From the NCBI GenBank assembly GCA_045401155.1, contig CP174360.1:513490-577489 (forward strand): 64,000 bases of DNA, given 5' to 3'. The position numbers were made by a program, and so were the translations under genes. This stretch comes from Candidatus Minusculum obligatum (GTDB taxonomy: Bacteria; Patescibacteriota; Minisyncoccia; Phycocordibacterales; Phycocordibacteraceae). Position 1 is the stretch's first letter; each line of letters opens with the position of its first letter. A model generated the notes under the pieces. The model made no database searches and was not told the origin of the DNA. It saw nothing but the letters and a program-made list of their open reading frames with translations. Of the stretch, positions 8,785 through 61,683 are shown piece by piece.

Positions 8785-8811
8785 TGACTATTGACATGTT
8801 TATGGTATAAT
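8784..8811 (+). promoter_or_regulatory. Sigma70-like promoter (TTGACT-16 nt-TATAAT) for the SPFH operon
   Basis: Near-consensus -35 and -10 hexamers with 16-nt spacer upstream of 8869. Confidence 0.55.
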
Positions 8812-8868
8812 AAATCTAGACACGTTGTTTGTCATCAAAACCTAGCAAAACAGAAAGGGGGTTCCTCC

Positions 8869-9870
8869 ATGTGGTGGAGCACATCTCTTTGGATCACTGG
8901 AGGAGTCCTCCTCTTGCTGATCATCGCGTTTTTCCTTTCCAAGAAAGGAACTACGCTTTCATTGGCTGTTGGTGTCGCTTTTAGCGTCCTCATCGGTCTT
9001 CTCATCTATGGAACAATCATCTATGCGCTTCGGCTCGAGATGTTCGTTCCGTCTTGGTTCGCGCAAATAGCCGCTCAAGTCATAGCGGCGGCAGCTGGCT
9101 TTCAAGTCTATCGGTTTGGAAGCGTTCTTGTGCCCCTAAAGCACAAGGCCGTGATCACCATCTTCGAAGAACGTCGGGATGAATGTCCGACCCTCGAAGA
9201 AGGCGCTGCCTGGCTTTTCCCCGGATTCATGAATGCCATCGCGGTCGATGCTCGGAAGTTCAATATTGATATTCCGCCTTTTTTCGTCTTCACAGAAGAC
9301 CTTATTAAGGTGGAGCTCAATCTTTCGAGCATCCTCTCGGTTGAGTGCCCAAACAAATATCTAAATGTCGATGCTGCAGAAAATATGATTCAGCAGCTCG
9401 CACGGCGCGCAGCGCGTGCCTGCTCAAACGACATTGGCGTAAGAGACATTGTCAAGCAAGACGACAAGATCTCCACCGCCATTCATGAAGAAGTTCAGGG
9501 TATTGTCTCTGATTGGGGCCTGAAGGTCCACTATATCAAGGCGGAGAATATCACGCCGCCTGATGAGATCGCGATGGAAGCTCAGCGCAAAGTGATCGAA
9601 GAGATCCAGCGCGAGGCGGAAGAGTATGAGGCGGAAACGCTTCAGCGGAAAATTTCCATTCTCGTCGACAAGTTCGAAAAGTATGGAATGACGCCGGACA
9701 AGGCCGCAAACCTGATCCAAGCAGAATCCAGCAAGATCACGCGTACGGCGTTTGACCTTGAGGGCATTGACAGTGTTAATGTCCTTCAGGCAGTCATCGC
9801 TTTCGCCGAAGCTCTGAAGGGCAAGGGATCGAAAGATACTGCTGGTACGGAAGAGGAGAGTGCGTCATGA
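8869..9870 (+). CDS. SPFH/band-7 domain membrane protein (HflK/HflC-stomatin family)
   Basis: Start MWWSTSLW preceded by an AAGGGGG Shine-Dalgarno. N-terminal TM segments, then a region collinear with HflK (VELNLSSILSVECPNKYLNV ... ITPPDEIAMEAQRKVIEEIQREAEEYEAE vs VEMNVQYRVTNPEKYLYSV ... RPPEEVKAAFDDAI..EAEAY). Gene body is markedly GC-richer than surrounding DNA. Confidence 0.75.
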   Translation: MWWSTSLWITGGVLLLLIIAFFLSKKGTTLSLAVGVAFSVLIGLLIYGTIIYALRLEMFVPSWFAQIAAQVIAAAAGFQVYRFGSVLVPLKHKAVITIFEERRDECPTLEEGAAWLFPGFMNAIAVDARKFNIDIPPFFVFTEDLIKVELNLSSILSVECPNKYLNVDAAENMIQQLARRAARACSNDIGVRDIVKQDDKISTAIHEEVQGIVSDWGLKVHYIKAENITPPDEIAMEAQRKVIEEIQREAEEYEAETLQRKISILVDKFEKYGMTPDKAANLIQAESSKITRTAFDLEGIDSVNVLQAVIAFAEALKGKGSKDTAGTEEESAS

Positions 9871-10307
9871 GCATGCCAACATCCCGTGCCGTTGAACACG
9901 GCCGCAATGCAACACCGCGAATGCTCTGGCTCTGGCTCATCATCGCGGCAATCATCGTTGGAAACGGGATCTATCACGTTCAGAAAATCGAACGCTCTCC
10001 CCTTTCCCAGCTCGCGCAAACGTCGAGAGACGCTACTTCGTTACCTGCCCAAGATACACCATGGGAGAACCAGGTTCTTGCAGCCGGCGAAGATACCCGC
10101 ATTCAATATGTGCCTGGTGGCTACCGGGTCTGCGTCAGCTCCTGGAGCGATCGTCAACGGTACTTCTGGTACGATGACGATCTTGAAGGAGATCTGAGGC
10201 CCCATGGTGGCGGAGACGTGACCATTGAACGTTTCCAGTTTCGGAACAGTTCGGACAACGAACTCCCGGTCCGCTTTCGGCTCATACCGTATGCACAAAC
10301 TTGCTAG
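9867..10307 (+). CDS. Membrane protein, possible NfeD-like partner of the SPFH protein
   Basis: ATGA-coupled to the SPFH gene. N-terminal TM helix plus a C-terminal ~70-aa soluble beta-rich region. SPFH genes are classically paired with nfeD; assignment is by context only. Confidence 0.4.
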   Translation: MSMPTSRAVEHGRNATPRMLWLWLIIAAIIVGNGIYHVQKIERSPLSQLAQTSRDATSLPAQDTPWENQVLAAGEDTRIQYVPGGYRVCVSSWSDRQRYFWYDDDLEGDLRPHGGGDVTIERFQFRNSSDNELPVRFRLIPYAQTC

Positions 10308-10321
10308 GTGTTGATACTAGC

Positions 10322-10358
10322 AAAACGGCGACCCCTCGGGGCCGCCGTTTTCTTTTTC
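10322..10358. terminator. GC-rich bidirectional rho-independent terminator between convergent genes
   Basis: aacggcgacccc-tc-ggggccgccgtt hairpin with T-run on + and A-run before it. Confidence 0.7.
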
Positions 10359-10359
10359 T

Positions 10360-10626
10360 TTACTGCAGATCTATCGGGGCATCGAGCCCAAATAGATTAA
10401 GAGTGATTCGCAACAATCCGAACACACCAATCATTATGGCAAGTCCGACAATTCCCCAAATCATATGACCCCTTCCTTTTGCACGCGTATCTTCACTTTG
10501 TCCAAAGGTGCCAATAAACTCAAGCACACCGTAAATAAAGATAACTGACGCAACACCAACAAGAAGTAAGATTAGAGGATTTACTATCTCTCGAACAATA
10601 CCATCAAGTAATCCGTCTAGATTCAT
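10360..10626 (-). CDS. Small two-helix membrane protein, paralog 1 of 4 (VirB2/TrbC-pilin-like architecture)
   Basis: 88 aa; TM1 - SEDTRAKGRG loop - MIWGIVGLAIMIGVFGLL TM2; shares a conserved motif with the next three ORFs. Confidence 0.55.
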   Translation of the reverse strand: MNLDGLLDGIVREIVNPLILLLVGVASVIFIYGVLEFIGTFGQSEDTRAKGRGHMIWGIVGLAIMIGVFGLLRITLNLFGLDAPIDLQ

Positions 10627-10630
10627 TTAA

Positions 10631-11026
10631 CTAGCGAATGTCCACTTCTGGAGGAGTAATAGTCTCTCCTTCAAGACCAAATGTTCCTACAAGAATGTTT
10701 ACAAGTCCCCATACTGATACCATCACGAAGAATGCAATGATTCCCCAAAGCATCAGCTGCTGACCTTCTTTTCGCTTGTCTTCTGAAGTTCCTCCAAGAA
10801 TAAAGCTTGTGAAAAGTCCCCAAACAAACACAATAAGTGCAAGCGCAAATACAAGCGGCACTAGTGTTCCATTAATAAAATTAATAACCGCATCTGCAAG
10901 ACCTTCAATGCTTCCAGCATTTTCAAACTGTGCAGCTGCAAGCAGTGGTGTAACCGCTACTGCGTACAGCGCAAGTCCACTTAGTGTTCCTGCTCCTAAA
11001 ATTCGTGTGTTCTTTTTCATACCCAT
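10631..11026 (-). CDS. Small two-helix membrane protein, paralog 2 of 4, with Sec-type signal peptide
   Basis: 131 aa; signal peptide ending AAA-Q, then TM1 - SEDKRKEGQQ loop - MLWGIIAFFVMVSVWGLV TM2. Confidence 0.55.
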   Translation of the reverse strand: MGMKKNTRILGAGTLSGLALYAVAVTPLLAAAQFENAGSIEGLADAVINFINGTLVPLVFALALIVFVWGLFTSFILGGTSEDKRKEGQQLMLWGIIAFFVMVSVWGLVNILVGTFGLEGETITPPEVDIR

Positions 11027-11083
11027 ACATAATACCGACCATATAGGTCGGCATCTAGATAAGTGAGTATTTAATGTGGATAT

Positions 11084-11329
11084 CTAAATACCAAATGATT
11101 TAAGTATAATGCGCACCAATCCCCACATAGAAACCACAACCGCAAACCCTATAATCCCCCACAACATGAACTGCGCACCCTCACTCCTAGACTTCGCATC
11201 ATCATATTTAACAAAGAAGTAGTTAAATATTCCCCACAAAAATAGCAAAAGCATTATTGCCAGCAACATAGGAATGATGCTGTTATTAAATATTTTTATG
11301 AGATATGTAACGAATTCTCGAAATGTCAT
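11084..11329 (-). CDS. Small two-helix membrane protein, paralog 3 of 4
   Basis: 81 aa; TM1 - DDAKSRSEGAQ loop - MLWGIIGFAVVVSMWGLV TM2. Confidence 0.55.
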   Translation of the reverse strand: MTFREFVTYLIKIFNNSIIPMLLAIMLLLFLWGIFNYFFVKYDDAKSRSEGAQFMLWGIIGFAVVVSMWGLVRIILKSFGI

Positions 11330-11751
11330 GATCCGCTTCCTATAGCTTCTACGGTCGCTTTAATAGCCTCTGCAATGATTTGCGCACCAATTAATATTAC
11401 TGCCCCTACAAGTGTCCAAAGTAGTGCTGCGCGAGCAGTCTTAATTGCCTCTGGATTTCCACGTGCATTTACAAACATAAACCCAACCACAACAATCATC
11501 ACAATCACCACCAATGTACCTAGGCGAACAATAAACTCTAAAATGTCAGTTAAAAACTCTTCCAGAGAATCAGCTTTTAGGGGGTTTTGAAGCTGGAACG
11601 TTGTGTTTCCAGGATTACCACCAGGAGTACCTACGCTGCCAGGATTACCTCCCGGGCTTCCTGTGCCACCAGGATTGCCTCCCTGCGCAAGAACCGCAAC
11701 CGGCGTCAAAACAAGAGAGAGTCCAAATAGAAATGAGAATAGTGTTTTCAT
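11326..11751 (-). CDS. Divergent paralog 4: signal peptide + GGNPG tandem-repeat linker + two-helix hairpin (VirB2/TrbC-like)
   Basis: 141 aa; signal peptide ..AVLA-QGG; three imperfect 10-aa repeats GGNPGxxGxP encoded by a ~30-nt tandem DNA repeat (11610-11700); then TM1 - NARGNPEAIKTAR loop - TM2. Confidence 0.5.
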   Translation of the reverse strand: MKTLFSFLFGLSLVLTPVAVLAQGGNPGGTGSPGGNPGSVGTPGGNPGNTTFQLQNPLKADSLEEFLTDILEFIVRLGTLVVIVMIVVVGFMFVNARGNPEAIKTARAALLWTLVGAVILIGAQIIAEAIKATVEAIGSGS

Positions 11752-13007
11752 AATTGTCGTAATAGTCGTTGTGCTTTTGTTAATGCTCCTATCGCATCTT
11801 CTCTACCACTTACTACATCATCAACCATAGCAGAGAAGATCTCGCCCACCTGCTCTGGCTGTGGAGAGAGCCATGCTTTTGCAATAAACGCTTCGTTATA
11901 TGCAAGATCTAGTACAGGATCTGCCTGTCGATTTGAAAGCAGTGTGCGCAGTACTGGAGCAATGTTTGATGCACTTGAAAATGCGTATGCATTGTTTTGA
12001 TTAATAAATGCAAATGCTGCAGTCTGAGATCCACTTACACTACGAGCTGCTTTTGGCACCGCAAATACATACACACTTCCGTATACAACCGGCACCCCAC
12101 CTTCAAGCTGTGGGAATGGAGCTGCTGCAAATGAGAGGTTTGGGTTTAATCCAGAAAGCACCTTTCCTTCGCTTGCTGGCGCAAAGTATAGCGTTAGATC
12201 TCCAAGCAAAAACGCCTTCTGATCCTCTTCTAAACTTTTATTCCATGAATACGCACTTGTATTTGGATTTGCAAACTCTGTATAGAAGCGAAGCGCACTC
12301 TCTGTGTCCTCACTATCTCCTCCAATAAGCTCTATCTGCCCTCTTGTATCACGAATGGGTGACCCTACTTGGAATAAGAAGCTTGCGAGCACCTTTTCTG
12401 CATGACGGATATTGCTATACGCACCAAGCGCTACAAAACTTTTATTGATTGAAAAACTTCCTGTTGTCTCAACAAAACGCGGCACAAGACCAACAAACTG
12501 CTCCCAAAACGCAGGTGCCTGACTTACGCGAGCACTATTAAGATGTGTCTTGTTATAAAACATCACAAGTGGGTCTACACCAACTGGAATACCAAGGTAC
12601 CCGTTTTGTGTAATCACCACATCTGCAACATCAACAAACGTGTCATCAAAGGTACGTGCTGGATATGTTTCAAAACTAATCGGCGCAAGTGTTTCTGAAA
12701 TTGATCCCAAAAGCTCATGCGGTACTAAAACCATGTCTGGCCCACGATCTGCAGCGAGCGCCTGGATATATGAATCATAAAAATCACTTTGATCTACCTC
12801 TACATAACTCACCCGATCAAAATCATCACGTCGATCTCGTACATTTCCAAGTGCTGCGCGCACCTCCTCCTTTGGAAGCGTTCCCCAAATAACAACTTCT
12901 CCAATAGTATTTTTATTATTTGAAGGATTTGCACCCGCAAAGACTAAAAGTCCGACGATAGCAAAAATCGCAAACCCCGCTGTTAAAATTAATTGAAATG
13001 GCTTCAT
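11748..13007 (-). CDS. Extracellular solute-binding protein (ABC-type family 1, MalE-like), membrane-anchored, orphan
   Basis: N-terminal TM anchor; VVIWGTLPKEE, LVPHELLGS, YLGIPVGVDPLVMFYNKTHL blocks typical of SBP_bac_1. No permease or ATPase adjacent. Confidence 0.5.
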   Translation of the reverse strand: MKPFQLILTAGFAIFAIVGLLVFAGANPSNNKNTIGEVVIWGTLPKEEVRAALGNVRDRRDDFDRVSYVEVDQSDFYDSYIQALAADRGPDMVLVPHELLGSISETLAPISFETYPARTFDDTFVDVADVVITQNGYLGIPVGVDPLVMFYNKTHLNSARVSQAPAFWEQFVGLVPRFVETTGSFSINKSFVALGAYSNIRHAEKVLASFLFQVGSPIRDTRGQIELIGGDSEDTESALRFYTEFANPNTSAYSWNKSLEEDQKAFLLGDLTLYFAPASEGKVLSGLNPNLSFAAAPFPQLEGGVPVVYGSVYVFAVPKAARSVSGSQTAAFAFINQNNAYAFSSASNIAPVLRTLLSNRQADPVLDLAYNEAFIAKAWLSPQPEQVGEIFSAMVDDVVSGREDAIGALTKAQRLLRQL

Positions 13008-13546
13008 GCTGGTTTCTTAAATACTAACGCATAATGGTGCGGTCCCGCACGAAATGCTTTCTCCTTGTGAAATCCCATATCGAGGAACAGGCGCTCTGCC
13101 TTATACTCCTCAATTACATTTTCCTGACGAGGACCAATGTTCCCATAGCTCCCTGCCCAATCAACTACGAGCACCTTTCCTCCTGGTTTTAAGATACGCC
13201 TGATCTCTGTAAGCGCGGCATTTGTATCCTCAATCTGAAACAGTACATTTCCTAAAATAACTGCATCGGCAGTCTCTGCTTTTAGTTTTGTGCCAAACTG
13301 CACCTCAATATCTCCCCATACGGTAGTGATATTAGAGAACCCATGCTCTACCGCCTCACGCTTAAGCGCCTTAAGTACATCCTCTTGTACATCAAGTGCA
13401 TACACGCGACCATCCGCACCAACAACAGGTGCTGCTGCAAGCGCGTAGTGCCCTACACCACTTCCAACATCAACAACGCGCATACCCTCACGCAGCCCCA
13501 TTTGTAGGATATTTGATTGCGGATTAGAAAATTCCATTACCCTCAA
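13004..13546 (-). CDS. Class I SAM-dependent methyltransferase
   Basis: VVDVGSGVGHYAL motif I, acidic motif II (ALDVQED), KPGGKVLVVD. Confidence 0.7.
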   Translation of the reverse strand: MRVMEFSNPQSNILQMGLREGMRVVDVGSGVGHYALAAAPVVGADGRVYALDVQEDVLKALKREAVEHGFSNITTVWGDIEVQFGTKLKAETADAVILGNVLFQIEDTNAALTEIRRILKPGGKVLVVDWAGSYGNIGPRQENVIEEYKAERLFLDMGFHKEKAFRAGPHHYALVFKKPA

Positions 13547-13577
13547 GTATAGCAGGGCTTAATATAAAAAAGAGAGA

Positions 13578-16052: not shown

Positions 16053-16053
16053 A

Positions 16054-17015: not shown

Positions 17016-17149
17016 AACAGTATATCACCTTGTCCAAAATAGACAATATTTCCTTTTGTTAAGCCATATTCTATATATTTTGCAAGACCACATTTTAAAA
17101 CTATTGACAAGTTTTATATTTGTAGTACTATCCTTTCATCCCTAGAGGA

Positions 17150-17745
17150 GAGTTATGGGCTGCTCGTAATCACGAGCCTTGAAAGTGCCGACGCGACTGT
17201 CGGTGGAAAATTCTCTCAAACAATGATCCTTCAAATCCCACGAGGTTTGAACATGACCAATCGTCACATCCGGGGTTCGACCGTCAATGGTCCGGCTTAT
17301 GAAAATACGAGCTCGACCCTGGACATCGATTCCGCGCCGACGTGCGGCTGGCGGTCGGCCTGATCGGCCGGCCAGGCCGGGAGGCAGTCACCGTGTGACG
17401 TGACTCCCGCCTGAGACCAGAGCAACCACCGCGATACAAGCTGCGCGCTTGGGGAGGTACTCATGTTTGTATTTCGACTTATGTCCCCGTACGCTACGGC
17501 GTGCGGGTAACATAGCCCTCTAAAATTTCGGGCAATACCCTGGTCCGGGCAGGACCACTTGAGATCGAGAAAGAGGCGTATAAGATTAATATCGCGTGCT
17601 GTGCACCGATCACTTTATCAGAATACACGCCTACCTAGGGAGCGTACTCCCAAGATCTCTATGACTTGCGGCTGTGGAGCTTGCGCGCAAATGCGCTCTC
17701 TACAGCCCGGTCCCAACCGTCTCTCTTGAGACGGTTTTTCTTTAC
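17150..17745 (+). ncRNA. Unclassified GC-rich structured-RNA candidate (~570-600 nt; strand tentative)
   Basis: 850-nt gap with no ORF of 60 aa or more. An abrupt GC-rich core (17150-17720) in an AT-rich genome, multiple internal hairpins (e.g. GCUCGU-aauc-ACGAGC; GGGAG..GUCAC-cgu-GUGAC..CUCCC), an upstream TTGACA box (17104) and a hairpin+T-run at 17716-17745. No CR-I or CR-V RNase P motifs in canonical order, no tRNA-like end and no clean SRP domain IV were found. Confidence 0.5.
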
Positions 17746-17869
17746 ATTTCACACATTTACCGCTATATTCTCCCTACTTCAGTACGGAGTTTTTTATTAC
17801 CTGTATGTCGGCTAACACTGCACTCTTAACGCAGTACCGAATACACAACTCCCGAACAAGAAAATACAT

Positions 17870-18949
17870 ATGTTTGGAAACAATAAAGAAGTGGAACATC
17901 CACTTCATCATTTGGTTGAAGAGGCTCCAGAACCACCACAAGTTGGTGACACTATTGAGGGAGAGATCGTAGCGATCGATCGCGGACGTGTATACATTGA
18001 CCTGCCACCATTTGGTACAGGAATCATTTACGGACGTGAGTACCTTTCTGCTGCTGACATTCTTCGAAAGAGTAATATTGGAGATTCAATCTCAGCAAAA
18101 GTAGTAGACGCTTCAGGACTTGAGGGATACATCGAGCTATCTCTTAAGGAGGCGCGTCAGGCTGCTATCTGGGGAGAAGCTGAGCAGGCTATTGCAGCTG
18201 AGTCTATCTACACTCTAAACGTAGAGGATGCGAACAAGGGAGGACTTATCCTTCGTTGGCAAGGAATCGATGGATTCCTTCCAGCATCTCAACTTAAGAG
18301 CGAGCACTACCCACGTGTACAAGATGGAGATAAGGATGAGATTCTTGGAGAGCTTAAGAAGCTTATCGGAACACCTCTATCAGTACGTATCATCACTGCT
18401 GATCCTAAGGAAGGAAAACTTATCTTCACTGAGAAGTCTTCTGAAGAGGAGGAGGCAAAGACTGATGCCGTTGATAAGTACACTGTAGGTGATGTTGTAG
18501 AAGGAAAGATCACCGGAGGTGTTGAGTTTGGTCTCTTTGTAGAGATTGAACCAGGGCTTGAGGGACTTGTGCACATTTCAGAGATTGATTGGGCACTTGT
18601 TGAAGATCCTGCAGCACTATACCCAGTTGGAACTGAGGTTAAGGTGAAAGTTATCGATGTGAAGGATGGAAAGGTTTCTCTTTCTATCAAGGCACTTAAG
18701 GAGAATCCTTGGGATGCTGCAGCAAAGAACTACAAGAAGGATCAAGAGGTTACAGGAGTGGTTATTAAGTACAACAAGCATGGTGCACTTATCTCAATTG
18801 AGGAAGGTGTTGCAGGTCTTGTACATGTTTCAGAATTTGAGAGCATGACAGACCTTCGCGAGAAGCTAGAGCTTGGAAAGACATATCCATTCACTATTAC
18901 ACTCTTTGAACCAAAGGAGCAGCGCATGACCCTTGCATTCAAGGGATAA
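17870..18949 (+). CDS. rpsA: 30S ribosomal protein S1, short 4-domain form
   Basis: Four tandem S1/OB RNA-binding repeats (GDTIEGEIV..., GDVVEGKITG..., GTEVKVKVIDV..., VTGVVIKYNKHGALI...); 359 aa. Confidence 0.8.
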   Translation: MFGNNKEVEHPLHHLVEEAPEPPQVGDTIEGEIVAIDRGRVYIDLPPFGTGIIYGREYLSAADILRKSNIGDSISAKVVDASGLEGYIELSLKEARQAAIWGEAEQAIAAESIYTLNVEDANKGGLILRWQGIDGFLPASQLKSEHYPRVQDGDKDEILGELKKLIGTPLSVRIITADPKEGKLIFTEKSSEEEEAKTDAVDKYTVGDVVEGKITGGVEFGLFVEIEPGLEGLVHISEIDWALVEDPAALYPVGTEVKVKVIDVKDGKVSLSIKALKENPWDAAAKNYKKDQEVTGVVIKYNKHGALISIEEGVAGLVHVSEFESMTDLREKLELGKTYPFTITLFEPKEQRMTLAFKG

Positions 18950-18954
18950 ACAAA

Positions 18955-18978
18955 AGGGCCCCTCTCGGGGCTTTTTTG
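18955..18978 (+). terminator. Rho-independent terminator after rpsA
   Basis: gggcccc-tct-cggggc hairpin + TTTTTT. Confidence 0.7.
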
Positions 18979-19034
18979 TTTGACAGCAACTTCTTAGAAG
19001 TGTTTAGTGTTACAGGGGCAATTGGAGGAGCGTG

Positions 19035-19169
19035 ATGATACATCCGGAAAAAAGCCGCATCGTTCAAAGCCAGGGGCGACGGCGTCTGGGAAAGTATGTT
19101 CTCGGCGCCGTAATCGCAATATCCATGATCGGCGGACTCATATACGCCTGGCCTTGGCCGGAAATGTGA
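19035..19169 (+). CDS. Small hydrophobic peptide (44 aa, one TM helix)
   Basis: Strong SD (ATTGGAGGAG 7 nt upstream); MIHPEKSRIVQSQGRRRLGKYVLGAVIAISMIGGLIYAWPWPEM; sits in a GC-elevated patch; followed by a perfect hairpin terminator. Confidence 0.4.
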   Translation: MIHPEKSRIVQSQGRRRLGKYVLGAVIAISMIGGLIYAWPWPEM

Positions 19170-19174
19170 GAATT

Positions 19175-19213
19175 GACCCGCGTGCATAAGTGCACGCGGG
19201 TCTTCACGTTTTT
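19175..19213 (+). terminator. Rho-independent terminator
   Basis: gacccgcgtgca-taa-gtgcacgcgggtc perfect 12-bp hairpin followed by TTCACGTTTTT. Confidence 0.7.
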
Positions 19214-19247
19214 AGGAGTATACTTTTATTGGAAGGAGGTGATCCAC

Positions 19248-19358
19248 ATGCCCCGACTTGCACACGAGCACAGAAGCGGCTTCTGGGTAATCGCCACCAT
19301 TGTGGTGGTAGGCCTTATTATTGCCGGCATCATTGTCGTGAAGAACTCTGGCGCCTAG
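19248..19358 (+). CDS. Small hydrophobic peptide (36 aa, one TM helix)
   Basis: Perfect SD GGAAGGAGGTGATCC then ATG; MPRLAHEHRSGFWVIATIVVVGLIIAGIIVVKNSGA; GC-rich codon usage. Overlaps the pth stop on the opposite strand. Confidence 0.4.
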   Translation: MPRLAHEHRSGFWVIATIVVVGLIIAGIIVVKNSGA

Positions 19359-19948
19359 CGCCAAGAGTTCACTTCATTCTGTGCTTTCACATGACCCTCG
19401 GCGAGGATAAGCTCTACCGCTTCCCTCGCCTTTTTCTTTGCCTTGGTCCAAACAGCCGAATCTTTCCCAAAGTCACTCATCAGATACTTGATGACCCCCT
19501 CCTCCCCTTTTGGTTTTTTTACCTTCCCTTTTGGAGTTGCAGAAGAGATACCAACACGAAGTCGAATAAAATCTTTTGTCTTAATACCACGTGCGATAGA
19601 TTCAACACCCTTGTGCCCCCCTGAGCCTCCACCAAATGAGATTTTTATCTTCCCAAGCGGCATATCAAGGTCGTCATAGATCACAATCATTTTCTTTGCG
19701 GCATTCACGCTCTTCACCACCTTTGAAACTGCAGACCCGGACTTATTCATGAAGGTGTTTGGATTTAGGAGTGTTACTTTTTCTCCTGCGATCACTCCTG
19801 TTCCTTTTTCAGAATTACTTGCCTTGTGTTCTTTTAGCTTAATGTCATTTTCATCTGCCAAAAGAGACACCATCATGCGTCCTACATTGTGTTTTGTTTT
19901 CTCATACTCCCCTCCTGGGTTTCCAAGTCCTACGATTGTGTATGCCAT
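19355..19948 (-). CDS. pth: Peptidyl-tRNA hydrolase
   Basis: MAYTIVGLGNPG...KHNVG, FGGGSGGHKGV motifs. Confidence 0.9.
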   Translation of the reverse strand: MAYTIVGLGNPGGEYEKTKHNVGRMMVSLLADENDIKLKEHKASNSEKGTGVIAGEKVTLLNPNTFMNKSGSAVSKVVKSVNAAKKMIVIYDDLDMPLGKIKISFGGGSGGHKGVESIARGIKTKDFIRLRVGISSATPKGKVKKPKGEEGVIKYLMSDFGKDSAVWTKAKKKAREAVELILAEGHVKAQNEVNSWR

Positions 19949-21716: not shown

Positions 21717-21759
21717 TTCAGAGACCTTGTGTACGTTACATATAGATTAGGAGGCGCAC

Positions 21760-22080
21760 ATGAGCGTTTTTATAGGAATGCTGCAAGGGCTATATCATCG
21801 CCCCGCAGACAACCTCGCAGAAGCAATTCTTTTGCGATTTGGCGCAGTAACCGGACTCGTGGCTACGTGTACGGTTATCTTCATTCTTTCTTTCGGAGGA
21901 TATGGGCTCTTTACTGTCTTAAATGAGACTATTACAACCATGACAGAGAGCACCCTTGAACTTGTTCTTGCCGTGATCTTTTACGCAGGAATGACTGTGT
22001 TTCCCTTATACGTCTTGGGATTAACGGCCCTCAAGCTCTGGAAAGACTTCTTCGACGAAGACGACTTCTCCAAAGAGTGA
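21760..22080 (+). CDS. Hypothetical small membrane protein (3 TM)
   Basis: ATG with AGGAGG SD; hydrophobic; followed by a GC hairpin terminator; mildly GC-elevated. Confidence 0.4.
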   Translation: MSVFIGMLQGLYHRPADNLAEAILLRFGAVTGLVATCTVIFILSFGGYGLFTVLNETITTMTESTLELVLAVIFYAGMTVFPLYVLGLTALKLWKDFFDEDDFSKE

Positions 22081-22085
22081 TTTCT

Positions 22086-22120
22086 CGCCCCGCTATCAAA
22101 TGCGGGGCTTCACTTTTTTA
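22086..22120 (+). terminator. Rho-independent terminator
   Basis: ccccgc-tatcaaat-gcgggg + TTCACTTTTTT. Confidence 0.65.
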
Positions 22121-47607: not shown

Positions 47608-47635
47608 TTGACTTTATATATAAAAATGGTATAAT
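47608..47635 (+). promoter_or_regulatory. Sigma70-like promoter (TTGACT-16-TATAAT)
   Basis: Near-consensus hexamers 45 nt upstream of the 47680 ATG. Confidence 0.55.
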
Positions 47636-47679
47636 ACAAATAAGTTGATCTTTCACACCTACAGCCTGAGGAGGGCACC

Positions 47680-48105
47680 ATGTTTAAACAAATCACGTTC
47701 ATCGCGGTTATGATGATTCTTTTCGCCATGATCGGCGCCACATATCTGGCGCTCGGCAACTACCTCATCGTTGGGGCAGGTGCCGCGCACGACCCGGCGT
47801 TCGAACGCTTCACGTTCCTCGGCGCCCTATACGTCATAGCGTACTGCGCCAGTATGGGCGTCGGCCTGCTGATCTCGGCTACATTCAAAAAGCGCCGAGA
47901 TCGCGATAACAATCCGGGAGAGGTCGTCATGGCGACCACGATCATCCAAATGGTCATCTTCTTCGTCGGCCTGGCCCTCATGGGCGCCATGGCGCTCGAA
48001 ATGACGGAGCAGTCAATCATCGCCGGCGTCGGCGCCATGATGATCTCGAATGTCCTGGTAGTCCGCTTCTCCTTCGAAGGAGGAAAGCAGATCGCCACGG
48101 CCTAA
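47680..48105 (+). CDS. Hypothetical 4-TM membrane protein encoded in a high-GC patch
   Basis: ORF with SD GAGGAGGG, strongly GC3-rich codons (~57% GC vs ~41% flanks), own promoter and terminator. Confidence 0.55.
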   Translation: MFKQITFIAVMMILFAMIGATYLALGNYLIVGAGAAHDPAFERFTFLGALYVIAYCASMGVGLLISATFKKRRDRDNNPGEVVMATTIIQMVIFFVGLALMGAMALEMTEQSIIAGVGAMMISNVLVVRFSFEGGKQIATA

Positions 48106-48125
48106 TCGAGCCCTCAGGCAAAACC

Positions 48126-48172
48126 AAAACCCCCGGCAAGACACCATGTCTTGCCGGGGGTTTCTCATTTTT
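48126..48172. terminator. Bidirectional rho-independent terminator
   Basis: cccccggcaagaca-ccatg-tcttgccggggg, a 14-bp hairpin + TTTCTCATTTTT. Confidence 0.75.
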
Positions 48173-48184: not shown

Positions 48185-50135
<1,951 letters not shown>

Positions 50136-54039: not shown

Positions 54040-54088
54040 TAAAAATCCCCACTTCGGTGGGGATTTTTAGTGATACTATAGTCGGTAA

Positions 54089-56212: not shown

Positions 56213-56235
56213 TGCAGGTACTATAGCACAAACAA

Positions 56236-56481
56236 AAAGCCGCTGAGAAACTCAGCGGCAACGAGTGGATCCAGGGACCTTACTTTCCTGAAGTAGGTAC
56301 CAGCTCGTGAACTGCGCATCGACACGAGATACTAGGCGCTCTGGGACGAGGGTTCTATCAGGACATTCAAGTTATCCGACCCCGAAAGGTCAGAACGAGA
56401 TAGTCGCAACAAGATACCCCACGATCACCGTTAAGGAACGTTCCCAATCGGGTCCCCGTGGATTTGGGTGCCCCGGATCCA
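56236..56481 (-). ncRNA. Unclassified GC-rich structured-RNA candidate (~245 nt) with paired 5'/3' ends and terminator
   Basis: GC-rich ORF-free block between pspC and the nth-like gene. On the minus strand there is a TTGACA-17-TATTTT promoter (56488-56515). The RNA starts near GGAUCCGGGGCACCC, which pairs with the 3' GGUCCCUGGAUCC, and contains internal hairpins (GGAACGUUCC; GACCU-UUCG-GGGUC). A terminator gccgctgag-ttt-ctcagcggc + U-run lies at 56239-56259. Confidence 0.5.
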
Positions 56482-56511
56482 AAAAGAAAATACTCAATTT
56501 CTAAAGTGCTG

Positions 56512-57180
56512 TCAACCTTTGTGCCACCCAACCGCCGCTTCAGGATATATCTTTATGAGCGGATCCTCTGAGGTATCGTACCTCCTTGCAGGAGCAATGT
56601 TTCTCCCATACTCAATAGCAAGATACGTAAAATTAAACCAATCTTTTTTAGGAATCACTTCCATCAAATCTTTTTCTATTTTTTCTGGAGTCGTATGATC
56701 TGTGAGATCAAATCGTATTGCAAAGCGCTTCACATGCGTATCTACTGCAATCCCCTCTACAATCCCATATGCATTCCCCAATACAACATTTGCGGTCTTC
56801 CTCCCCACTCCAGGGATCGTAATCATTTCCTCAATAGTTTTTGGAATTTTTCCATCAAAATCCTCCTTTACAACCTTTGCAGCGGCAAGAATATTTTTTG
56901 CTTTGTTTTTATAAAACCCTGTTGATTTAATATCTTGCTCAAACTCTTTAAGATCTGCTCGAACGTAATCATCTAATTTCTTATACTTCTTAAAAAGCTT
57001 CTCGGTAACCTTATTTACCATCTTGTCTGTACATTGTGCAGAGAGCGCAACCGCAACCACAAGTTCCCAGTTATTAGAATACTTTAAAATCATCCCTGCC
57101 TCAGGAAAAATGCTTTTTAGTTTTTTAATTAGGTTTTTTGCTCGAACCTTTCTCTCCTCCATAGTATTACTGTAGTTCAT
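56512..57180 (-). CDS. Endonuclease III-like HhH-GPD glycosylase lacking the 4Fe-4S cysteine motif
   Basis: HhH motif (ITIPGVGRKTANVVL), catalytic Lys/Asp region (VDTHVKR); C-terminus has no Cys cluster. Confidence 0.65.
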   Translation of the reverse strand: MNYSNTMEERKVRAKNLIKKLKSIFPEAGMILKYSNNWELVVAVALSAQCTDKMVNKVTEKLFKKYKKLDDYVRADLKEFEQDIKSTGFYKNKAKNILAAAKVVKEDFDGKIPKTIEEMITIPGVGRKTANVVLGNAYGIVEGIAVDTHVKRFAIRFDLTDHTTPEKIEKDLMEVIPKKDWFNFTYLAIEYGRNIAPARRYDTSEDPLIKIYPEAAVGWHKG

Positions 57181-57631
57181 CTAGATCCTTCAAAACCTCC
57201 TCTGCGTGCAGCTTTGGCTTTACATTTTCATACACTTTCATAATCTTTCCTTCTGGATTAATTAAGAAAGAATTTCTAAAAACTCCTTGATATACTCTTC
57301 CCATAAACTTCTTTTCACCCCAAACCTTGTAGGCATCAATTATTTTTCTATCCTCATCTACTAAAAGTGGGAACGAAAGATCAAACTTTTCTGCAAACTT
57401 CTTATGACTCTCTAATGAATCCGGAGATACTCCAAGAACCACTGTATTTCTTTTTTCAAAATCTTTCTTATACTCTTCAAAAACCTGCCCCTCTACTGTA
57501 CACCCGGGAGTATTATCTTTTGGGTAAAAATATAAAAGCACCCAACCACCTCTGTAATCTTCTAGACTGTGCTCCTTTTCGTTTTGGTCTATTGCCGTAA
57601 ACTTTGGCGCTTTTTTATGCAGCAGATCCAT
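57167..57631 (-). CDS. Thiol peroxidase / peroxiredoxin (Bcp-like, AhpC/TSA family)
   Basis: Start at MDLLHKKAPKF. FTAIDQNEKEHSL...PKDNTPGCTVEGQ peroxidatic Cys motif. Confidence 0.8.
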   Translation of the reverse strand: MDLLHKKAPKFTAIDQNEKEHSLEDYRGGWVLLYFYPKDNTPGCTVEGQVFEEYKKDFEKRNTVVLGVSPDSLESHKKFAEKFDLSFPLLVDEDRKIIDAYKVWGEKKFMGRVYQGVFRNSFLINPEGKIMKVYENVKPKLHAEEVLKDLDELQ

Positions 57632-58337
57632 TTTCTTGTTTTTCTTTTGCCTCCTCAAGCCTCTTTTCTTCTTTTTTAACAACTTTTTCTGCAACCTTGC
57701 GCTTTGTATAAAGGTTCATAAGCGCAAAGATAAGCATGCTTGAAAATACAATTCCTAGAACATTTACAAGATATAGCGTAAATGCACCTGAAATAACTTT
57801 GATATCAAGATTTGCAAGCCCAACTCCAATAGTTGCAAGCGGTGGAATAAGCGCCACCGAAACTGCAATCCCCGGAAGCGTAGCTGAGAGTGCTGGCTGC
57901 GCTAGTGAATACGAAACAGCAAGGCCTGCAACGATTGCAACACCGACATAAATAAGAGATGGCTCTGTGCGAAGCAGAATCTCATCTGTAAGCGGCGCAA
58001 ATGGAGAAAATATCAGAGTTGCAAGTGCTGCTGTAGCAACGGCCGCGGCAGACGCTTGCAAAAACGTCATGATCGAACGAGCAATAAGCGGACCATCAGA
58101 CATAATGATAGATAGCGAAATAGAAAGAATTGGAAACAGAATTGGAGCCAAAAGCATTGATCCAATTACAACTGCTGGGTTATTTGCAACAAGACCAAGT
58201 GTGGCCATAAGCACTGAAAGTACAATGAAAAAGAAGAAATCAAAGTCTCCTGTGCTCTCTCGAATCAAAAGATCAACCGCTTTGGTCTTGTCTGAATCGT
58301 TAATCGTCCGCAGGTGTGCAATAAAGTTAAATACCAT
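57615..58337 (-). CDS. DUF389-family polytopic membrane protein
   Basis: Repeated hydrophobic segments with the DUF389/TIGR00341-like pattern (LLAPILFPIL...PLATIGVGLAN). Confidence 0.45.
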   Translation of the reverse strand: MVFNFIAHLRTINDSDKTKAVDLLIRESTGDFDFFFFIVLSVLMATLGLVANNPAVVIGSMLLAPILFPILSISLSIIMSDGPLIARSIMTFLQASAAAVATAALATLIFSPFAPLTDEILLRTEPSLIYVGVAIVAGLAVSYSLAQPALSATLPGIAVSVALIPPLATIGVGLANLDIKVISGAFTLYLVNVLGIVFSSMLIFALMNLYTKRKVAEKVVKKEEKRLEEAKEKQENGSAA

Positions 58338-58357
58338 ATGTGTAGACTATAGCATTT

Positions 58358-58834
58358 TTACCCTTCCTCTCTTCGCATCATTGGTGGAATAAGATCTGTA
58401 TATCGAGGCGCTTCCTTTGGAATTCTAATGATAAGCAACGCAACAATAATAAGAAGTGTTGCCAGAATTGCTGAAAGCATGCAGTACATGCACACCGCAC
58501 CAATTACAAAGAACTGTAGGTAGACGAAATACAGGGACGCGAGAAATCCAATTGATGCTCCCAGGGTAAATAGTTGAGATAACATGCGCACGCGCACCAT
58601 AAGCATAGTTGCCGCCAACACAAACATTCCAAAATAGAAAAGTACACCCCACGATGCAAGTGGCACCCCAAGCACAATTGAGTACGGACTTGCTGCAACA
58701 GCGTTACATCCATTTAAAATACTGCAGTTAAGAGGCTCTCCTGATACGTGCGACTGCACAAGGTAAAAAGAATTTGTTAGTCCGATAAAAGAAAGAATTA
58801 CTCCTGCCCACACCAATCCAATATATTTTTTCAT
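58358..58834 (-). CDS. Vitamin K epoxide reductase (VKOR) family protein
   Basis: Start at MKKYIGL. Four TM helices, loop Cys pair (CSILNGC) and an active-site CMYC (CxxC) in the last TM. Confidence 0.7.
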   Translation of the reverse strand: MKKYIGLVWAGVILSFIGLTNSFYLVQSHVSGEPLNCSILNGCNAVAASPYSIVLGVPLASWGVLFYFGMFVLAATMLMVRVRMLSQLFTLGASIGFLASLYFVYLQFFVIGAVCMYCMLSAILATLLIIVALLIIRIPKEAPRYTDLIPPMMRREEG

Positions 58835-58856
58835 ATCTAATATCCTATAGAATTTC

Positions 58857-59087
58857 TTACAGTTTCTCAAATCGAGGAGATCCCTCATGCAGCTCCAAAA
58901 ATCGATCTATACTCTGTACCCAAACAAGATCTTTATTAGCAACATCTTGATACACCACAACTTCCTCAAGCTCATCTTTTTCAGATGACCGCCCCACAAA
59001 AAGCACATCGTACTCATTTCCCTTGTAGTGGCGATACCTCCCAAGCTCTAGGGTTTTTGCCTTTTCTGAGTATTCAAGATCCGCCAT
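58857..59087 (-). CDS. DUF1653-family protein
   Basis: Start at MADLEY. GRYRHYKGNEYDVLFVGRSSEKDELEEVVVYQDV matches the DUF1653 signature. Confidence 0.6.
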   Translation of the reverse strand: MADLEYSEKAKTLELGRYRHYKGNEYDVLFVGRSSEKDELEEVVVYQDVANKDLVWVQSIDRFLELHEGSPRFEKL

Positions 59088-59088
59088 A

Positions 59089-59280
59089 TTATTCTCCCTT
59101 CTTCCAATTTCTAATAACAAGACGCTTTCTCTTCTCATCCACTTCGACAACAAGCTTTTGTCGATCCTTCCATTTAAATTTTCTAACTGCCTCAATCGGC
59201 ATTGTTACGCTGTAGCTTGCACCTCCTGCAATCTTAGTGAGCGCACGCACATGCCGTTTTTCTAGATCTTTTCCTACCAT
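59089..59280 (-). CDS. AbrB/MazE/SpoVT-family swapped-hairpin DNA-binding protein
   Basis: ALTKIAGGASYSVTMPIEAVRKF resembles the AbrB-N / MazE motif (GGSLxVTIPKEI); 63 aa. Confidence 0.5.
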   Translation of the reverse strand: MVGKDLEKRHVRALTKIAGGASYSVTMPIEAVRKFKWKDRQKLVVEVDEKRKRLVIRNWKKGE

Positions 59281-59321
59281 ACAGGAGAGAGTATAGCATA
59301 TTTAACTACGTAGTTTAAACC

Positions 59322-60056
59322 CTATGGCAACGCGATATCTTTCTTTTCACCACACATAATATCACGACACACATTTGTGTTTGGTCGTGGAATTTTTGCA
59401 AAAAATACTGCAGAAAATACATAGAAAAGCATGTGAAAGATTAAGGCATAGATTATTCCTCCTGACACGTACAAAATGAGAAATGGAATAGCAAACCCAC
59501 CTGCAAGCGCAATAGTGCTGTAATGAAGACCCCACATAAGTCCTGAGGTGAAAAATAGGTATATATGAGAGAGTGCAAAAATTGCTACAAAAATAAGTAC
59601 AATTGCTGGATAGTTTACACCCGCAATCGCAAGCTGGTGCACCAATATTCCTGCCACAAGCTGCTGAGAGAATACGTCCCCTGCTTTTGCAACAATATAC
59701 CGCTCTTCAAGAGAAAGCATTGTTTGCCCAGGAAATAAGGCAACAAGCCATCCGGGACTCCCAATAGTTCCTCGCAAATATGAAAAGACTGCCGGAAACA
59801 ATACAAAGAAACAAAAGATGAGTGCCAGCCACCCAACAAGCTTTACCTCACTAAACAAAAGTGAAACTTCTTTTTGAAAAAGTATTAAAAAAATTACAGA
59901 CCATGCTCCAAAATACAAAAGCGCTCTTGCTGGAGCCGCAACAAATGTGAGTTTAAACATTTGCTTGAAAAGCAAAACATAGCCAACTCGAACAATAGTC
60001 GCAAGCGCGAGTACAATCCAAAACGCTAAAGGAATGGTTAAAAGCACTTCGTACAT
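59322..60056 (-). CDS. CPBP-family (CAAX/Abi) intramembrane metalloprotease-like protein
   Basis: Multi-TM; SLEERYIVAK (EExxxR-like), FALSH (FxxxH), HMLFYVFSA (H) motifs. Confidence 0.45.
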   Translation of the reverse strand: MYEVLLTIPLAFWIVLALATIVRVGYVLLFKQMFKLTFVAAPARALLYFGAWSVIFLILFQKEVSLLFSEVKLVGWLALIFCFFVLFPAVFSYLRGTIGSPGWLVALFPGQTMLSLEERYIVAKAGDVFSQQLVAGILVHQLAIAGVNYPAIVLIFVAIFALSHIYLFFTSGLMWGLHYSTIALAGGFAIPFLILYVSGGIIYALIFHMLFYVFSAVFFAKIPRPNTNVCRDIMCGEKKDIALP

Positions 60057-60121
60057 TAAAAATAGTGTACCGCAATGGTGTACATATCACTAAATTATGA
60101 CAAAATTAATCCAAAGAAAAT

Positions 60122-61027
60122 ATGTCATACATTGGCTTCCCAAAAGAACTTATACCATCGCTGATTTGTCAAAAATGTGAATCTGCTTTGGGCTTGGAAG
60201 TAAAGCAAGAGAATAAAGATAGAATAGTTTCCGGAAATTTAAAGTGTTCAAAGTGTGAGAAAACATACGCCATAAGGAAAGGAGTGGTTTTATTTTTAGA
60301 AAAAGAAGAAGTAAAAAGCGAAATTCAAAAAAAAGAAATTGAAGAGCGCGATAAACAAGCGCAAGGTTATGATAAACGTCTTGCTCCTAGATATTTTAGA
60401 GAAGTTGTGCCCACATTAAAATTTCTTGGAGATACATCTAATAAGAAACTAATTGAATATGCTTGCGGAACTGGACGTGTCACAACAGAGATCAAGGAAG
60501 GAACTCATATTCTAGCCATAGATTTTTCTGTTGAGTCTTTAGAGGTTTTATCGTCAAAAATTAAACCGGATTCTATCACTGGCCTGGTTTTGGCTGATGC
60601 TTCTAAATTTAAATCAGCAAATAATTTTTTTGATTTTGCCCTAGCTGCCCAGTTTATTGAACATTTACCAAGCATTAATGATAGAAAAGAATTTCTACTC
60701 AATGTTTCAAATTCAATAAAAAAAGAAGCTGTTTTTGTTTCAACAGTCTACTATCAGGACCTTAGAAGAAAACTAAAAGGCCTTAAACCTGAAGGCAGTC
60801 ATAAAGATGCTATATTCTTCCATTATTTTTCTATCAAGGAATCTAAGAAAGAATGGTCTGAATACTTTAAACACGTGGAAGTAGTTCCAATCGATATAGA
60901 ACTACCCCTACAAGCTCGATTATCTTTAAGCCCAGAGGTCTCTGGGTTCATATCAGAAAGACTTCAGAATATTTACCCACTTAATCTGTTTGGACACCTA
61001 CTCTGTGTCATAGCAAATAATAAATAG
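60122..61027 (+). CDS. Class I SAM-dependent methyltransferase with N-terminal Trm112-like zinc-ribbon
   Basis: C-x2-C ... C-x2-C (CQKCES...CSKCEK) then a methyltransferase fold (YACGTGRVT, LAIDFS). Confidence 0.6.
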   Translation: MSYIGFPKELIPSLICQKCESALGLEVKQENKDRIVSGNLKCSKCEKTYAIRKGVVLFLEKEEVKSEIQKKEIEERDKQAQGYDKRLAPRYFREVVPTLKFLGDTSNKKLIEYACGTGRVTTEIKEGTHILAIDFSVESLEVLSSKIKPDSITGLVLADASKFKSANNFFDFALAAQFIEHLPSINDRKEFLLNVSNSIKKEAVFVSTVYYQDLRRKLKGLKPEGSHKDAIFFHYFSIKESKKEWSEYFKHVEVVPIDIELPLQARLSLSPEVSGFISERLQNIYPLNLFGHLLCVIANNK

Positions 61028-61105
61028 AGAAGGCGAACATTATTCCAATACCCACTAAACAGAAAATCCGCCAAAGCGGATTTTCTGTTTAGATACTATA
61101 ACGTG

Positions 61106-61177
61106 CTGCCCAGCAGGGAATCGAACCCCGATTTTTGGTGCCAGAAACCAACGTCCTACCGTTAGACGACCGGGCAA
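61106..61177 (-). tRNA. tRNA-Gln (CTG)
   Basis: Reverse complement: U1:A72 acceptor tgcccgg/ctgggca, D-arm gtctaacggtaggac, anticodon stem ttggt/accaa with loop ttCTGgc, T-arm cgggg-ttcgatt-ccctg. Confidence 0.75.
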
Positions 61178-61256
61178 GTAATCCGTAGAATAGTCTAAAA
61201 TCTAATATAATTCAAACGAAATGGGGCGCACCATTTTCAGACACGCCCCAAAAAGA

Positions 61257-61610
61257 TCACAATACTTGAGAAGCACGGATGCTCTCAAACCCCCTCCTCT
61301 GACTATGAGGATCGAGGTTCGGAGTATTGACTCGATGGCCCTTCTCGTACGCCTGTCTGCGAAGCTGCAGATTATGCGGCGAAAGCACCCGCAAACAATC
61401 CATCGGAAGCTCATCAGCAACCTCAGTCAGATGGAAGTGAGCAAGGATTGCCTGACGCCCTTCTTCAGTGAGGCTTTCACTTTCCCAGCGGACGCCAACT
61501 TTTTGAGAAACAGTCCAGGTGTCCTGCTCCTCAAACGACCAATCCGCCTGAATGCATCCATACTCGTCGATATTCACCGAAAAGCAGGCTTTTTGATTTT
61601 CAGAGGACAT
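61257..61610 (-). CDS. Hypothetical protein encoded in a GC-elevated patch next to tRNA-Gln
   Basis: ORF with SD GGAGGAG; ~50% GC vs ~40% flanks; no recognisable family. Confidence 0.4.
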   Translation of the reverse strand: MSSENQKACFSVNIDEYGCIQADWSFEEQDTWTVSQKVGVRWESESLTEEGRQAILAHFHLTEVADELPMDCLRVLSPHNLQLRRQAYEKGHRVNTPNLDPHSQRRGFESIRASQVL

Positions 61611-61683
61611 TTTCTCCTCCCCTTTCTATTTCGAGCTCAATTACTCTTAATTTGAAGATATTCCTCAAATATAAAACTGTCAA

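Follow-up and report, generated by a model that had tools for sequence, protein, structure and literature searches.

GC-rich patches in a low-GC clade of marine Patescibacteria as candidate replacement-type islets

Introduction

The closest described counterparts of the loci considered here are the replacement flexible genomic islands of aquatic bacteria, which are exchanged by homologous recombination and at whose boundaries peaks of synonymous substitutions have been described (Lopez-Perez, Martin-Cuadrado, Rodriguez-Valera 2014; PMC4033161). The present analysis concerns a 64,000-nt stretch of the genome of Candidatus Minusculum obligatum (contig CP174360.1, positions 513,490 to 577,489 of the forward strand), hereafter the window, in which five short coding patches of atypical composition, called A to E in order of position, and one GC-rich non-coding patch upstream of the S1 gene lie between core genes. 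Like replacement islands, the slots at these loci occupy the same chromosomal position across related genomes, hold divergent or non-homologous genes in an equivalent architecture (different types of Band_7 protein at one slot; a protein with four transmembrane (TM) segments against one with two at another), and are distributed incongruently with the core. They differ in scale and content: a replacement island is a multi-gene glycosylation cluster, whereas the slots described here hold one or two genes over 0.1–1.4 kb within a promoter-terminator frame, and their payloads are orphans that are GC-richer than the core. The products of replacement islands are envelope-associated; what corresponds to this in the window is the prediction of TM segments in six of the seven patch open reading frames (ORFs), the product of E being predicted soluble.

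Patescibacteria are thought to be attached to other cells, and few of the genes behind their surface and their interactions with hosts are known. Comparison of the window with its sister genomes leads us to favor, at somewhat better than even confidence, the reading that the patches are small hypervariable slots at fixed positions whose payloads are exchanged through conserved flanks, in the manner of replacement-type islets. Flanking regulatory sequence is common across the clade at A, D, E, and the slot upstream of S1, and the position only at slot B. Judged from sequence, the payload is an orphan protein or pair, mostly membrane-anchored, which is far diverged, replaced, or present in one genome and absent from another, and its distribution is incongruent with core relatedness in two pairs of near-identical sisters (L006/L007 and L003/L087). 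GC-richness is a property of the A, D, and E payloads in the clade genomes measured, rather than the product of one-off host transfers.

Results

The window and its sister genomes

The window has a GC (guanine-plus-cytosine) content of 43.5%, slightly above the roughly 41% ascribed to the genome in a first-pass annotation made from the DNA sequence alone. Its core genes encode IF-2, RbfA, GyrA, S1, Pth, LepB, S21, FtsA, and ribonucleotide reductase, as well as LemA, an M48 peptidase, GroEL/ES, RNase J, and FtsEX, and it further contains eight tRNAs and the RNase P RNA. Rfam searches of the window at the gathering threshold matched only these tRNAs and the RNase P RNA, and searches of the GC-rich non-coding patches and of the sister loci likewise returned tRNAs and RNase P only.

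Related loci were recovered by anchoring on S1, which yielded three sisters with S1 proteins 90–91% identical to that of the window, L006 (UBA3533), L007 (UBA2103), and L008 (NORP156), together with 77 more distant relatives at 70–75% S1 identity. L001–L005, L086, and L167 were added through homologue look-ups, and L087 through an RNase J anchor. Core proteins of the sisters are 85–91% identical to those of the window, and identity at core four-fold-degenerate sites is 0.50–0.61 against a chance expectation of 0.33–0.41, so that synonymous sites in the core are diverged but unsaturated. The window clade is marine and consists of Paceibacteria/Kaiserbacteria-like Patescibacteria. Across the wider group, represented by 81 S1-anchored loci (L006–L086), median GC is 55% with a range of 40–65.5%; only five of the 81 fall below 45%, and the window clade lies at 40–43%. 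The clade is thus a low-GC outlier within a GC-rich group.

Composition and codon usage of the patches

Window ORFs of at least 150 aa have a background third-codon-position GC (GC3) of 0.36 ± 0.05, whereas the units listed here range from 0.51 to 0.78. Each ORF was compared with core codon usage conditional on its own amino-acid sequence, and membrane-protein composition therefore cannot account for the GC3 excess. On this scale, 37 core genes yield z-scores from −3.4 to +3.1, all seven patch ORFs exceed the core-predicted GC3 (z from +3.0 to +10.9), and the codon log-likelihood z-scores of the patch ORFs run from −3.8 to −13.1. The first-pass annotation had proposed such patches, with raised GC3 relative to housekeeping genes, and the observation stands; codon usage is foreign-looking, computed usage being atypical in all seven ORFs, not uniform. 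Bulk GC, expressed as the fraction of same-size window segments at least as GC-rich, separates the patches further. A (8869–10307; 52.3% GC, fraction 0.003) and D (47650–48170; 57.0%, 0.0004) are extreme, B (19000–19360; 52.9%, 0.02) and E (61200–61620; 49.4%, 0.05) are moderate, and C (21760–22120; 46.3%, 0.20) is no outlier. The abrupt GC elevation claimed for every segment accordingly applies to A, B, D, and E, with C standing out in GC3 only; and although the five patches originally listed are real, the GC-richest patch of the window, a non-coding segment at 17104–17745, had been missed. The remaining GC peaks are tRNA genes. The expectation of small membrane proteins was similarly correct for the six ORFs with predicted TM segments and failed for E.

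Composition and variability coincide. In the regions covered by sisters, 12 of 49 ORFs lack a sister orthologue of at least 65% identity, and these 12 include every one of the five ORFs whose GC3 is 0.5 or higher (hypergeometric P = 4e-4). Where near-identical sister pairs fail to align, the segments concerned mostly have 46–53% GC, against 42–43% overall. The elevation extends to sister payloads, with GC3 of 0.60 for a D homologue, 0.52 for a 77-aa ORF found in place of D, 0.48 for the E orthologue, and 0.33–0.51 for alleles of the SPFH gene in slot A, against backgrounds of 0.30–0.35. Orthologues of A1 and A2 (the two genes of slot A), D, and E show codon-position identities of 0.70–0.82 at position 2, 0.64–0.75 at position 1, and 0.35–0.44 at position 3, a gradient indicating that these ORFs are coding and under purifying selection.

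One alternative is that the payloads are vertically inherited, clade-restricted, fast-evolving orphans whose high GC3 was made or is kept in place, either by GC-biased gene conversion (gBGC) at loci of frequent recombination between divergent alleles or by selection on the mRNA for slow translation or RNA stability; we regard this as possible but not probable. Bacterial GC heterogeneity has been attributed to gBGC (Lassalle et al. 2015; PMC4450053). The patches resemble that pattern in that raised GC3 is seen only at loci where recombination or an exchange of alleles is indicated, but the shift here is much larger (GC3 up to 0.78 against 0.36) and flanking genes are unaffected. Within the flanking core genes we detected no gBGC footprint, GC3 being unrelated to distance from a slot; this absence of a gradient is weak evidence, as conversion can be biased only where mismatches occur. 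The rise from 0.36 to 0.78 also lies far above the effects reported for bacterial gBGC. As for mRNA selection, unit mRNAs fold more stably than synonymous-codon permutations (z from −2.4 to −4.1), in a range that overlaps with that of control genes (−0.5 to −3.6).

Codon fitting counts against a purely local origin, since the codon tables of real GC-rich genomes outperform native usage with a fitted G/C tilt by a difference in log-likelihood of 4–43 (A1 43, A2 23, D 21, E 14, and C 4). On the side of change in place, sister counterparts do occupy the same slots, and those at A, D, and E are themselves GC3-elevated. Tables from Ruegeria, Pseudomonas, and Mycobacterium fit the units as well as those of GC-rich Patescibacteria, so a donor cannot be named from codon usage, and we rejected codon usage as a donor fingerprint because it does not discriminate among GC-rich tables.

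Slot A: replacement of an SPFH gene pair

Slot A opens with the promoter TTGACT-16-TGgTATAAT (8784–8811, plus strand), conserved in all sisters, and closes with a terminator hairpin (10322–10358) that is common to the convergent pilin operon and equally conserved. The promoter, a hairpin in the 5′ untranslated region (5′UTR), and the ribosome-binding site (RBS), extending to 8868, are kept in all sisters whatever the payload type, as is the terminator of the tRNA cluster upstream. Within this frame the window carries two plus-strand genes: A1 (8869–9870) encodes an SPFH/Band_7 protein of 333 aa whose N-terminal part contains two TM segments (GC3 0.575, z +8.6), and A2 (9867–10307), which overlaps A1 by 4 nt and is translationally coupled to it, a partner of 146 aa that has a single TM segment and is beta-rich in its C-terminal part (GC3 0.572, z +6.0). 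A1 matches the Pfam family PF01145 (E = 1.8e-20), gives remote structure matches to QmcA and stomatin, and is a stomatin/QmcA-like SPFH protein. A2 has no match in Pfam or NCBIfam, NfeD included, and its single-sequence AlphaFold2 model, a TM helix followed by six strands, has a predicted local distance difference test score (pLDDT) of 51.7, too low for a fold search. The pair resembles SPFH/NfeD-type operons in combining a Band_7/SPFH domain behind an N-terminal membrane anchor with a coupled small one-TM partner that has a beta-rich part in the low-confidence model; unlike those operons, A2 matches no NfeD or other Pfam model, and two very divergent types of pair replace each other at a single locus.

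All five sisters covering the position (L006, L007, L008, L086, and L167) carry, between tRNA-Leu(tag) and the T4SS-pilin genes, an SPFH gene with a single-TM partner of about 130–156 aa. The SPFH alleles of the window, L007, L086, and L167 form one type, 49–63% identical among themselves, whereas the Band_7 proteins of L006 and L008 belong to a second type only 15–21% identical to the first. The contrast is sharpest between L006 and L007, which are 98% identical in S1 protein (0.93 at S1 four-fold sites) and 93% identical in the adjacent pilin, against 16% in SPFH. Their core four-fold-site identity is 0.77–0.93 despite the different cassette types, which means that the cassette was replaced between close relatives; such a switch of type is not vertical descent and weighs against change in place. 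Even between alleles of one type, four-fold identity (window against L007) is 0.32 with a chance level of 0.26, that is, saturated, unlike the core at 0.50–0.61.

Cassette GC3 exceeds the local background in all six genomes, the window included. Where the window pair stands at 0.575/0.572 (SPFH/partner) over about 0.36, the corresponding values are 0.505/0.447 over 0.34 in L007, 0.40/0.50 over 0.315 in L006, 0.405/0.42 over about 0.32 in L086, 0.33/0.40 over 0.30 in L008, and, for the SPFH gene only, 0.39 over 0.32 (RbfA) in L167. A search of 5.8 billion proteins with A1 returned four matches below E = 1e-10, one of them A1 itself and the other three at slot A in low-GC relatives. Two further observations accord with change in place: polarized third-position changes in the window SPFH gene run from AT to GC at 16 of 32 sites and from GC to AT at 5 of 19, small numbers near saturation; and the L086 partner protein looks, by eye, like a mosaic between the two cassette types.

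Two features of the surroundings deserve description. In L007, an extra small unit at 1355–1850, beginning MSGKEYGRGRSDG, is flanked by two near-identical copies of the slot-A terminator, an arrangement that suggests addition of units by recombination at terminator sequences. Beside slot A in the window (10360–11751) lies an array of four small ORFs of ordinary GC3, whose identity to the corresponding sister ORFs is 72–83%. A direct match to the T4SS-pilin family PF18895 was obtained for the first two, and the other two correspond by position to ORFs annotated as pilins in L086.

Slot D and unit E

Slot D shows the same organization with a different content. Its plus-strand promoter, TTGACT-16-TATAAT with a TG motif (47608–47635), is conserved in L003 and L087; the plus-strand gene D (47680–48105; 57% GC, GC3 0.779, z +10.9) encodes a 141-aa orphan with four TM segments; and a bidirectional terminator hairpin of 17–18 bp follows at 48127–48163. 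L003 holds a 140-aa D homologue at this position. L087, 91–96% identical to L003 in DNA and sharing its promoter, 5′UTR, and terminator at the slot, holds instead a 77-aa ORF with two TM segments (GC3 0.52). Of the elements common to these two genomes, the promoter and part of the 5′UTR recur in the window. The presence of a D homologue in L003 and of the 77-aa ORF in L087 again departs from vertical descent. A word-indexed search and an exhaustive profile search of 1.84 billion representatives recovered a single non-self relative of D, P0002 (58% identity), which adjoins LemA in the UBA3533 lineage and has a GC3 of 0.60 over a background of about 0.35.

Unit E lies on the minus strand (61222–61683) and comprises a promoter-like site (61683–61655), the RBS AGGGGAGGAG, the ORF ACJKSS_03330 (61610–61257), and a terminator (61250–61222). 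The ORF encodes an orphan of the 117 aa originally described (GC3 0.526, z +3.7), which is, however, predicted to be soluble and lacks a predicted TM segment, contrary to its earlier description as a membrane protein; its single-sequence AlphaFold2 model (pLDDT 40.7) was too low for a fold search. L087 has a 118-aa E orthologue (58% identity, GC3 0.48) beside FtsX and tRNA-Gln, with a conserved promoter region. At both D and E, four-fold identity is 0.44–0.45 against 0.52–0.58 in the flanks (n = 31–43), a divergence near enough to that of the flanks to speak for change in place at these two loci.

The conservation at A, D, and E also bears on whether an assembly or binning chimera joined GC-rich fragments of another organism to this contig, as might be suspected of a metagenome-derived genome. 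The junctions lie inside promoter and terminator sequence that recurs in independent NCBI, JGI, ENA/Tara, and Logan assemblies, and these same assemblies carry orthologues of A, D, and E at the same loci, which makes an artifact of this kind extremely unlikely.

Several neighboring segments differ among the genomes as well. GroES-GroEL stands directly to the right of slot D (48185–50135) in this genome only, a local rearrangement; in the UBA3533 lineage, the genes to the right of the slot are a response regulator, a 162-aa gene, and SecG, with a comparable, shorter set in L087. An intergenic segment of about 280 bp at 56221–56504, 50% GC and without an Rfam match, lies between a PspC-like small gene and nth; its counterparts in L003 and L087 cannot be aligned with each other although these two genomes are near-identical, while conserved blocks are common to the window and L087. 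Near unit E, the stretch at 59322–61027 holds two genes that the sisters lack. One encodes a 244-aa orphan whose composition is ordinary (GC3 z −0.6); the other encodes a 301-aa S-adenosylmethionine (SAM)-methyltransferase of 34% GC (GC3 z −4.4), which has a PADLOC mad2 match (E = 3e-11) and, over N-terminal residues 9–56, a weak NCBIfam Trm112 match below the curated cutoff. In L087 the position is taken by a CMAS-type methyltransferase. This low-GC insertion means that the flexible fraction is not uniformly GC-rich.

The S1 neighborhood: the upstream slot and slot B

The patch upstream of S1 (17104–17745, plus strand) consists of a promoter (17104–17131), a payload of about 600 nt, and a terminator (17715–17736). 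The payload averages 55% GC with a peak of 63.5%, encodes no ORF longer than 46 aa, folds more stably than shuffled sequence (z −5.7), and has no Rfam match; it may be a structured RNA belonging to no known family or a small-peptide unit. The slot is present in four of five genomes: the sisters share the conserved promoter TTGACAAGTTTT upstream of S1, behind which the GC-rich payload differs from genome to genome and is missing in L008. A short ORF start, MT.R.IRGS, recurs behind this promoter in L006 and L007.

Slot B occupies the spacer between S1 and the convergent Pth gene. In the window it encodes, on the plus strand, B1 (19035–19169), a peptide of 44 aa, or of 45 aa should translation begin at the GTG at 19032, that has its TM segment at the C-terminal end and is preceded by the RBS GGAGGAG (GC3 0.59, z +3.0), with a hairpin 3′ of the gene near 19176–19203, and B2 (19248–19358), a 36-aa single-TM peptide (GC3 0.66, z +4.2) preceded by the RBS GGAAGGAGGTGATCC (19234–19248). 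The latter appears complementary to about 12 nt of what we take to be the usual 16S 3′ end, assuming the standard anti-Shine-Dalgarno sequence, an unusually long apparent match for the gene of a 36-aa peptide. With one TM segment each, B1 and B2 resemble the toxins of type I toxin-antitoxin systems in size (below 60 aa) and hydrophobicity.

Every sister has its own set of tiny tail-anchored or TM peptides in this spacer: three in L086, two in L007, one together with a 148-aa protein in L006, and, in L008, a two-TM ORF of opposite orientation. The genomes thus agree in position and peptide architecture, and the sequence similarity of the peptides is marginal. The stop codon of the last peptide overlaps the convergent Pth stop in the window (B2), L006, and L007. 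The order of S1 followed by convergent Pth holds in 71 of the 81 wider-group loci, with spacers of 14–2298 bp.

Unit C and private insertions

Unit C (21717–22104, plus strand) is an insertion of about 388 bp placed right after the stop of a HisZ-like gene. It contains an RBS, an ORF of 106 aa with two to three TM segments (21760–22080; GC3 0.505, z +3.7), and a plus-strand hairpin (22087–22108) that abuts an ancestral T-run; the RBS and terminator are present, and a promoter of its own is unconvincing. The spacer between the HisZ-like gene and S21 measures only 46–49 bp in L006, L007, and L008, none of which has C, and the ORF stands alone, as a singleton, in the protein collection. Clean and specific to the window, C is the one recent insertion that can be demonstrated, and as such is at odds with a purely vertical history of the units. 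In L006, a 93-aa ORF (18748–19029; GC3 0.55) is inserted where the window genes abut (26665/26666), so that sisters, too, carry private GC-rich insertions.

Search for a donor or a mobile origin

From the same composition, the first-pass annotation had drawn the conclusion of repeated acquisitions from a GC-rich donor, with a high-GC host of the episymbiont as a plausible source. We consider independent acquisitions of this kind quite unlikely. The foreign-looking codons, with D fitting the Ruegeria, Pseudomonas, and Mycobacterium tables, are what such transfers would leave behind, three sisters lack the cleanly inserted C, and both A and E adjoin tRNA genes. However, the sisters have counterparts of A, B, D, and E at the corresponding loci, with regulatory sequence kept at A, D, and E, and the protein collections searched yielded no homologue of A1 or D outside the clade. 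The best matches anticipated in high-GC taxa did not materialize for A1 and D, whose only relatives are those at the same loci in low-GC sisters; their restriction to the clade is also what descent and change in place would predict. Scans of 50,697 phage records, of 72,556 plasmids, and of IMG/VR recovered no relatives of the units, and C and E had none in JGI metagenomes or in the IMG/VR, phage, and plasmid collections. There is no integrase nearby, and no repeat families, boundary repeats, miniature inverted-repeat transposable elements, or attC-like sites are common to the slots.

The remaining claims about the units as inserted elements fared unevenly. Promoters, RBSs, and hairpins were found as described, including the consensus promoter and GC hairpin terminator of D, except for the promoter of C; the units are discrete, and A, D, and E have a promoter and terminator of their own. 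Insertion between core genes applies to C, and the payloads of A and D have been swapped between sisters, whereas A, B, D, and E keep fixed positions. Comparison of presence and absence, proposed as a check, singled out C, and the possibility that the same genes recur with the same composition across the lineage proved partly true, in that the A, D, and E counterparts in sisters are also GC3-elevated. We also considered integron gene cassettes and rejected them: attC-like sites are lacking, and the inverted repeats at cassette ends are simple terminators with no family common to the slots.

An independent promoter-gene-terminator unit of atypical composition is the classic pattern of phage morons. 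A, D, and E conform to it as self-contained units whose composition differs from that of their flanks, and small accessory, often membrane, products are a further point in common. On this view the units would derive from phage or another mobile element and encode, for example, superinfection-exclusion, defense, or toxin functions; the type I toxin-like size and hydrophobicity of B1 and B2 speak for it. The units differ from morons in lying between core chromosomal genes, without flanking prophage genes or phage homologues, at positions and behind host-type promoters that are conserved clade-wide. PADLOC and NCBIfam gave no match for any unit, and the only two PHROG matches were weak and uninformative (for A1 a 'lipoprotein' family at E = 7e-4, for B2 a family of unknown function at E = 2e-3); together with the empty phage, plasmid, and IMG/VR searches, these results make moron-like mobile units an unlikely explanation.

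Discussion

We return to the reading that the patches are replacement-type slots. Under it, divergent payload alleles would persist in the population and would be exchanged by homologous recombination through the conserved flanks, with diversifying selection on envelope components plausibly maintaining their variety. The units would then be envelope-associated components under such selection. As to the source of the GC-richness, we prefer the view that payloads circulate through unsampled GC-richer relatives and would be incompletely ameliorated in the window clade, given that its GC lies well below the 55% median of the wider group. Gene transfers in Patescibacteria have been found to occur mostly within the phylum (PMC12455944). 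Coarse block identities between L003 and L087 show no obvious substitution peak at the slot edges.

Several observations weigh against this interpretation. We found no GC-rich donor carrying any unit gene, and the SPFH allele closest to that of the window (63% identity, in L167) belongs to a low-GC relative and has a GC3 of 0.39. Recombination through flanks implies donors from the same low-GC clade, which fits poorly with distant GC-rich sources. D and E, whose divergence is modestly above that of their flanks, could be vertically inherited, fast-evolving genes. Finally, a rough relaxation model of GC3, calibrated on core four-fold-site identity, traces D of L003 back to an ancestral GC3 of about 0.8 and accommodates the E values with an ancestor at about 0.6–0.65, but reaches the 0.78 of the window D from no ancestor shared with L003; a separate, later import or a maintaining force is then needed.

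A more speculative extension, which we hold to be rather doubtful, is that the loci are dedicated expression slots, in which GC-rich ORFs for small envelope proteins would be swapped repeatedly into a fixed promoter, 5′UTR, and terminator from an unsequenced reservoir, which might be either a partner organism of high GC or a mobile element specific to Patescibacteria.

Whatever the source of the payloads, composition alone picks out the genes that vary between near-identical genomes of this marine clade. The orphan membrane proteins and the SPFH pair form a short list of candidates for phage-receptor, host-recognition, or envelope-remodeling functions. Contrary to the usual pattern, it is the flexible genome that has the higher GC here and the core the lower, and the case is relevant to the question of whether the composition of streamlined genomes is shaped by gene flow or by biased conversion. 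It also illustrates that a GC-rich patch in a low-GC symbiont is by itself no proof of transfer from the host. Were the idea of dedicated expression slots to hold, payload composition would trace the DNA-exchange partners of these episymbionts, and the slots would constitute a cassette system for diversifying the cell surface.

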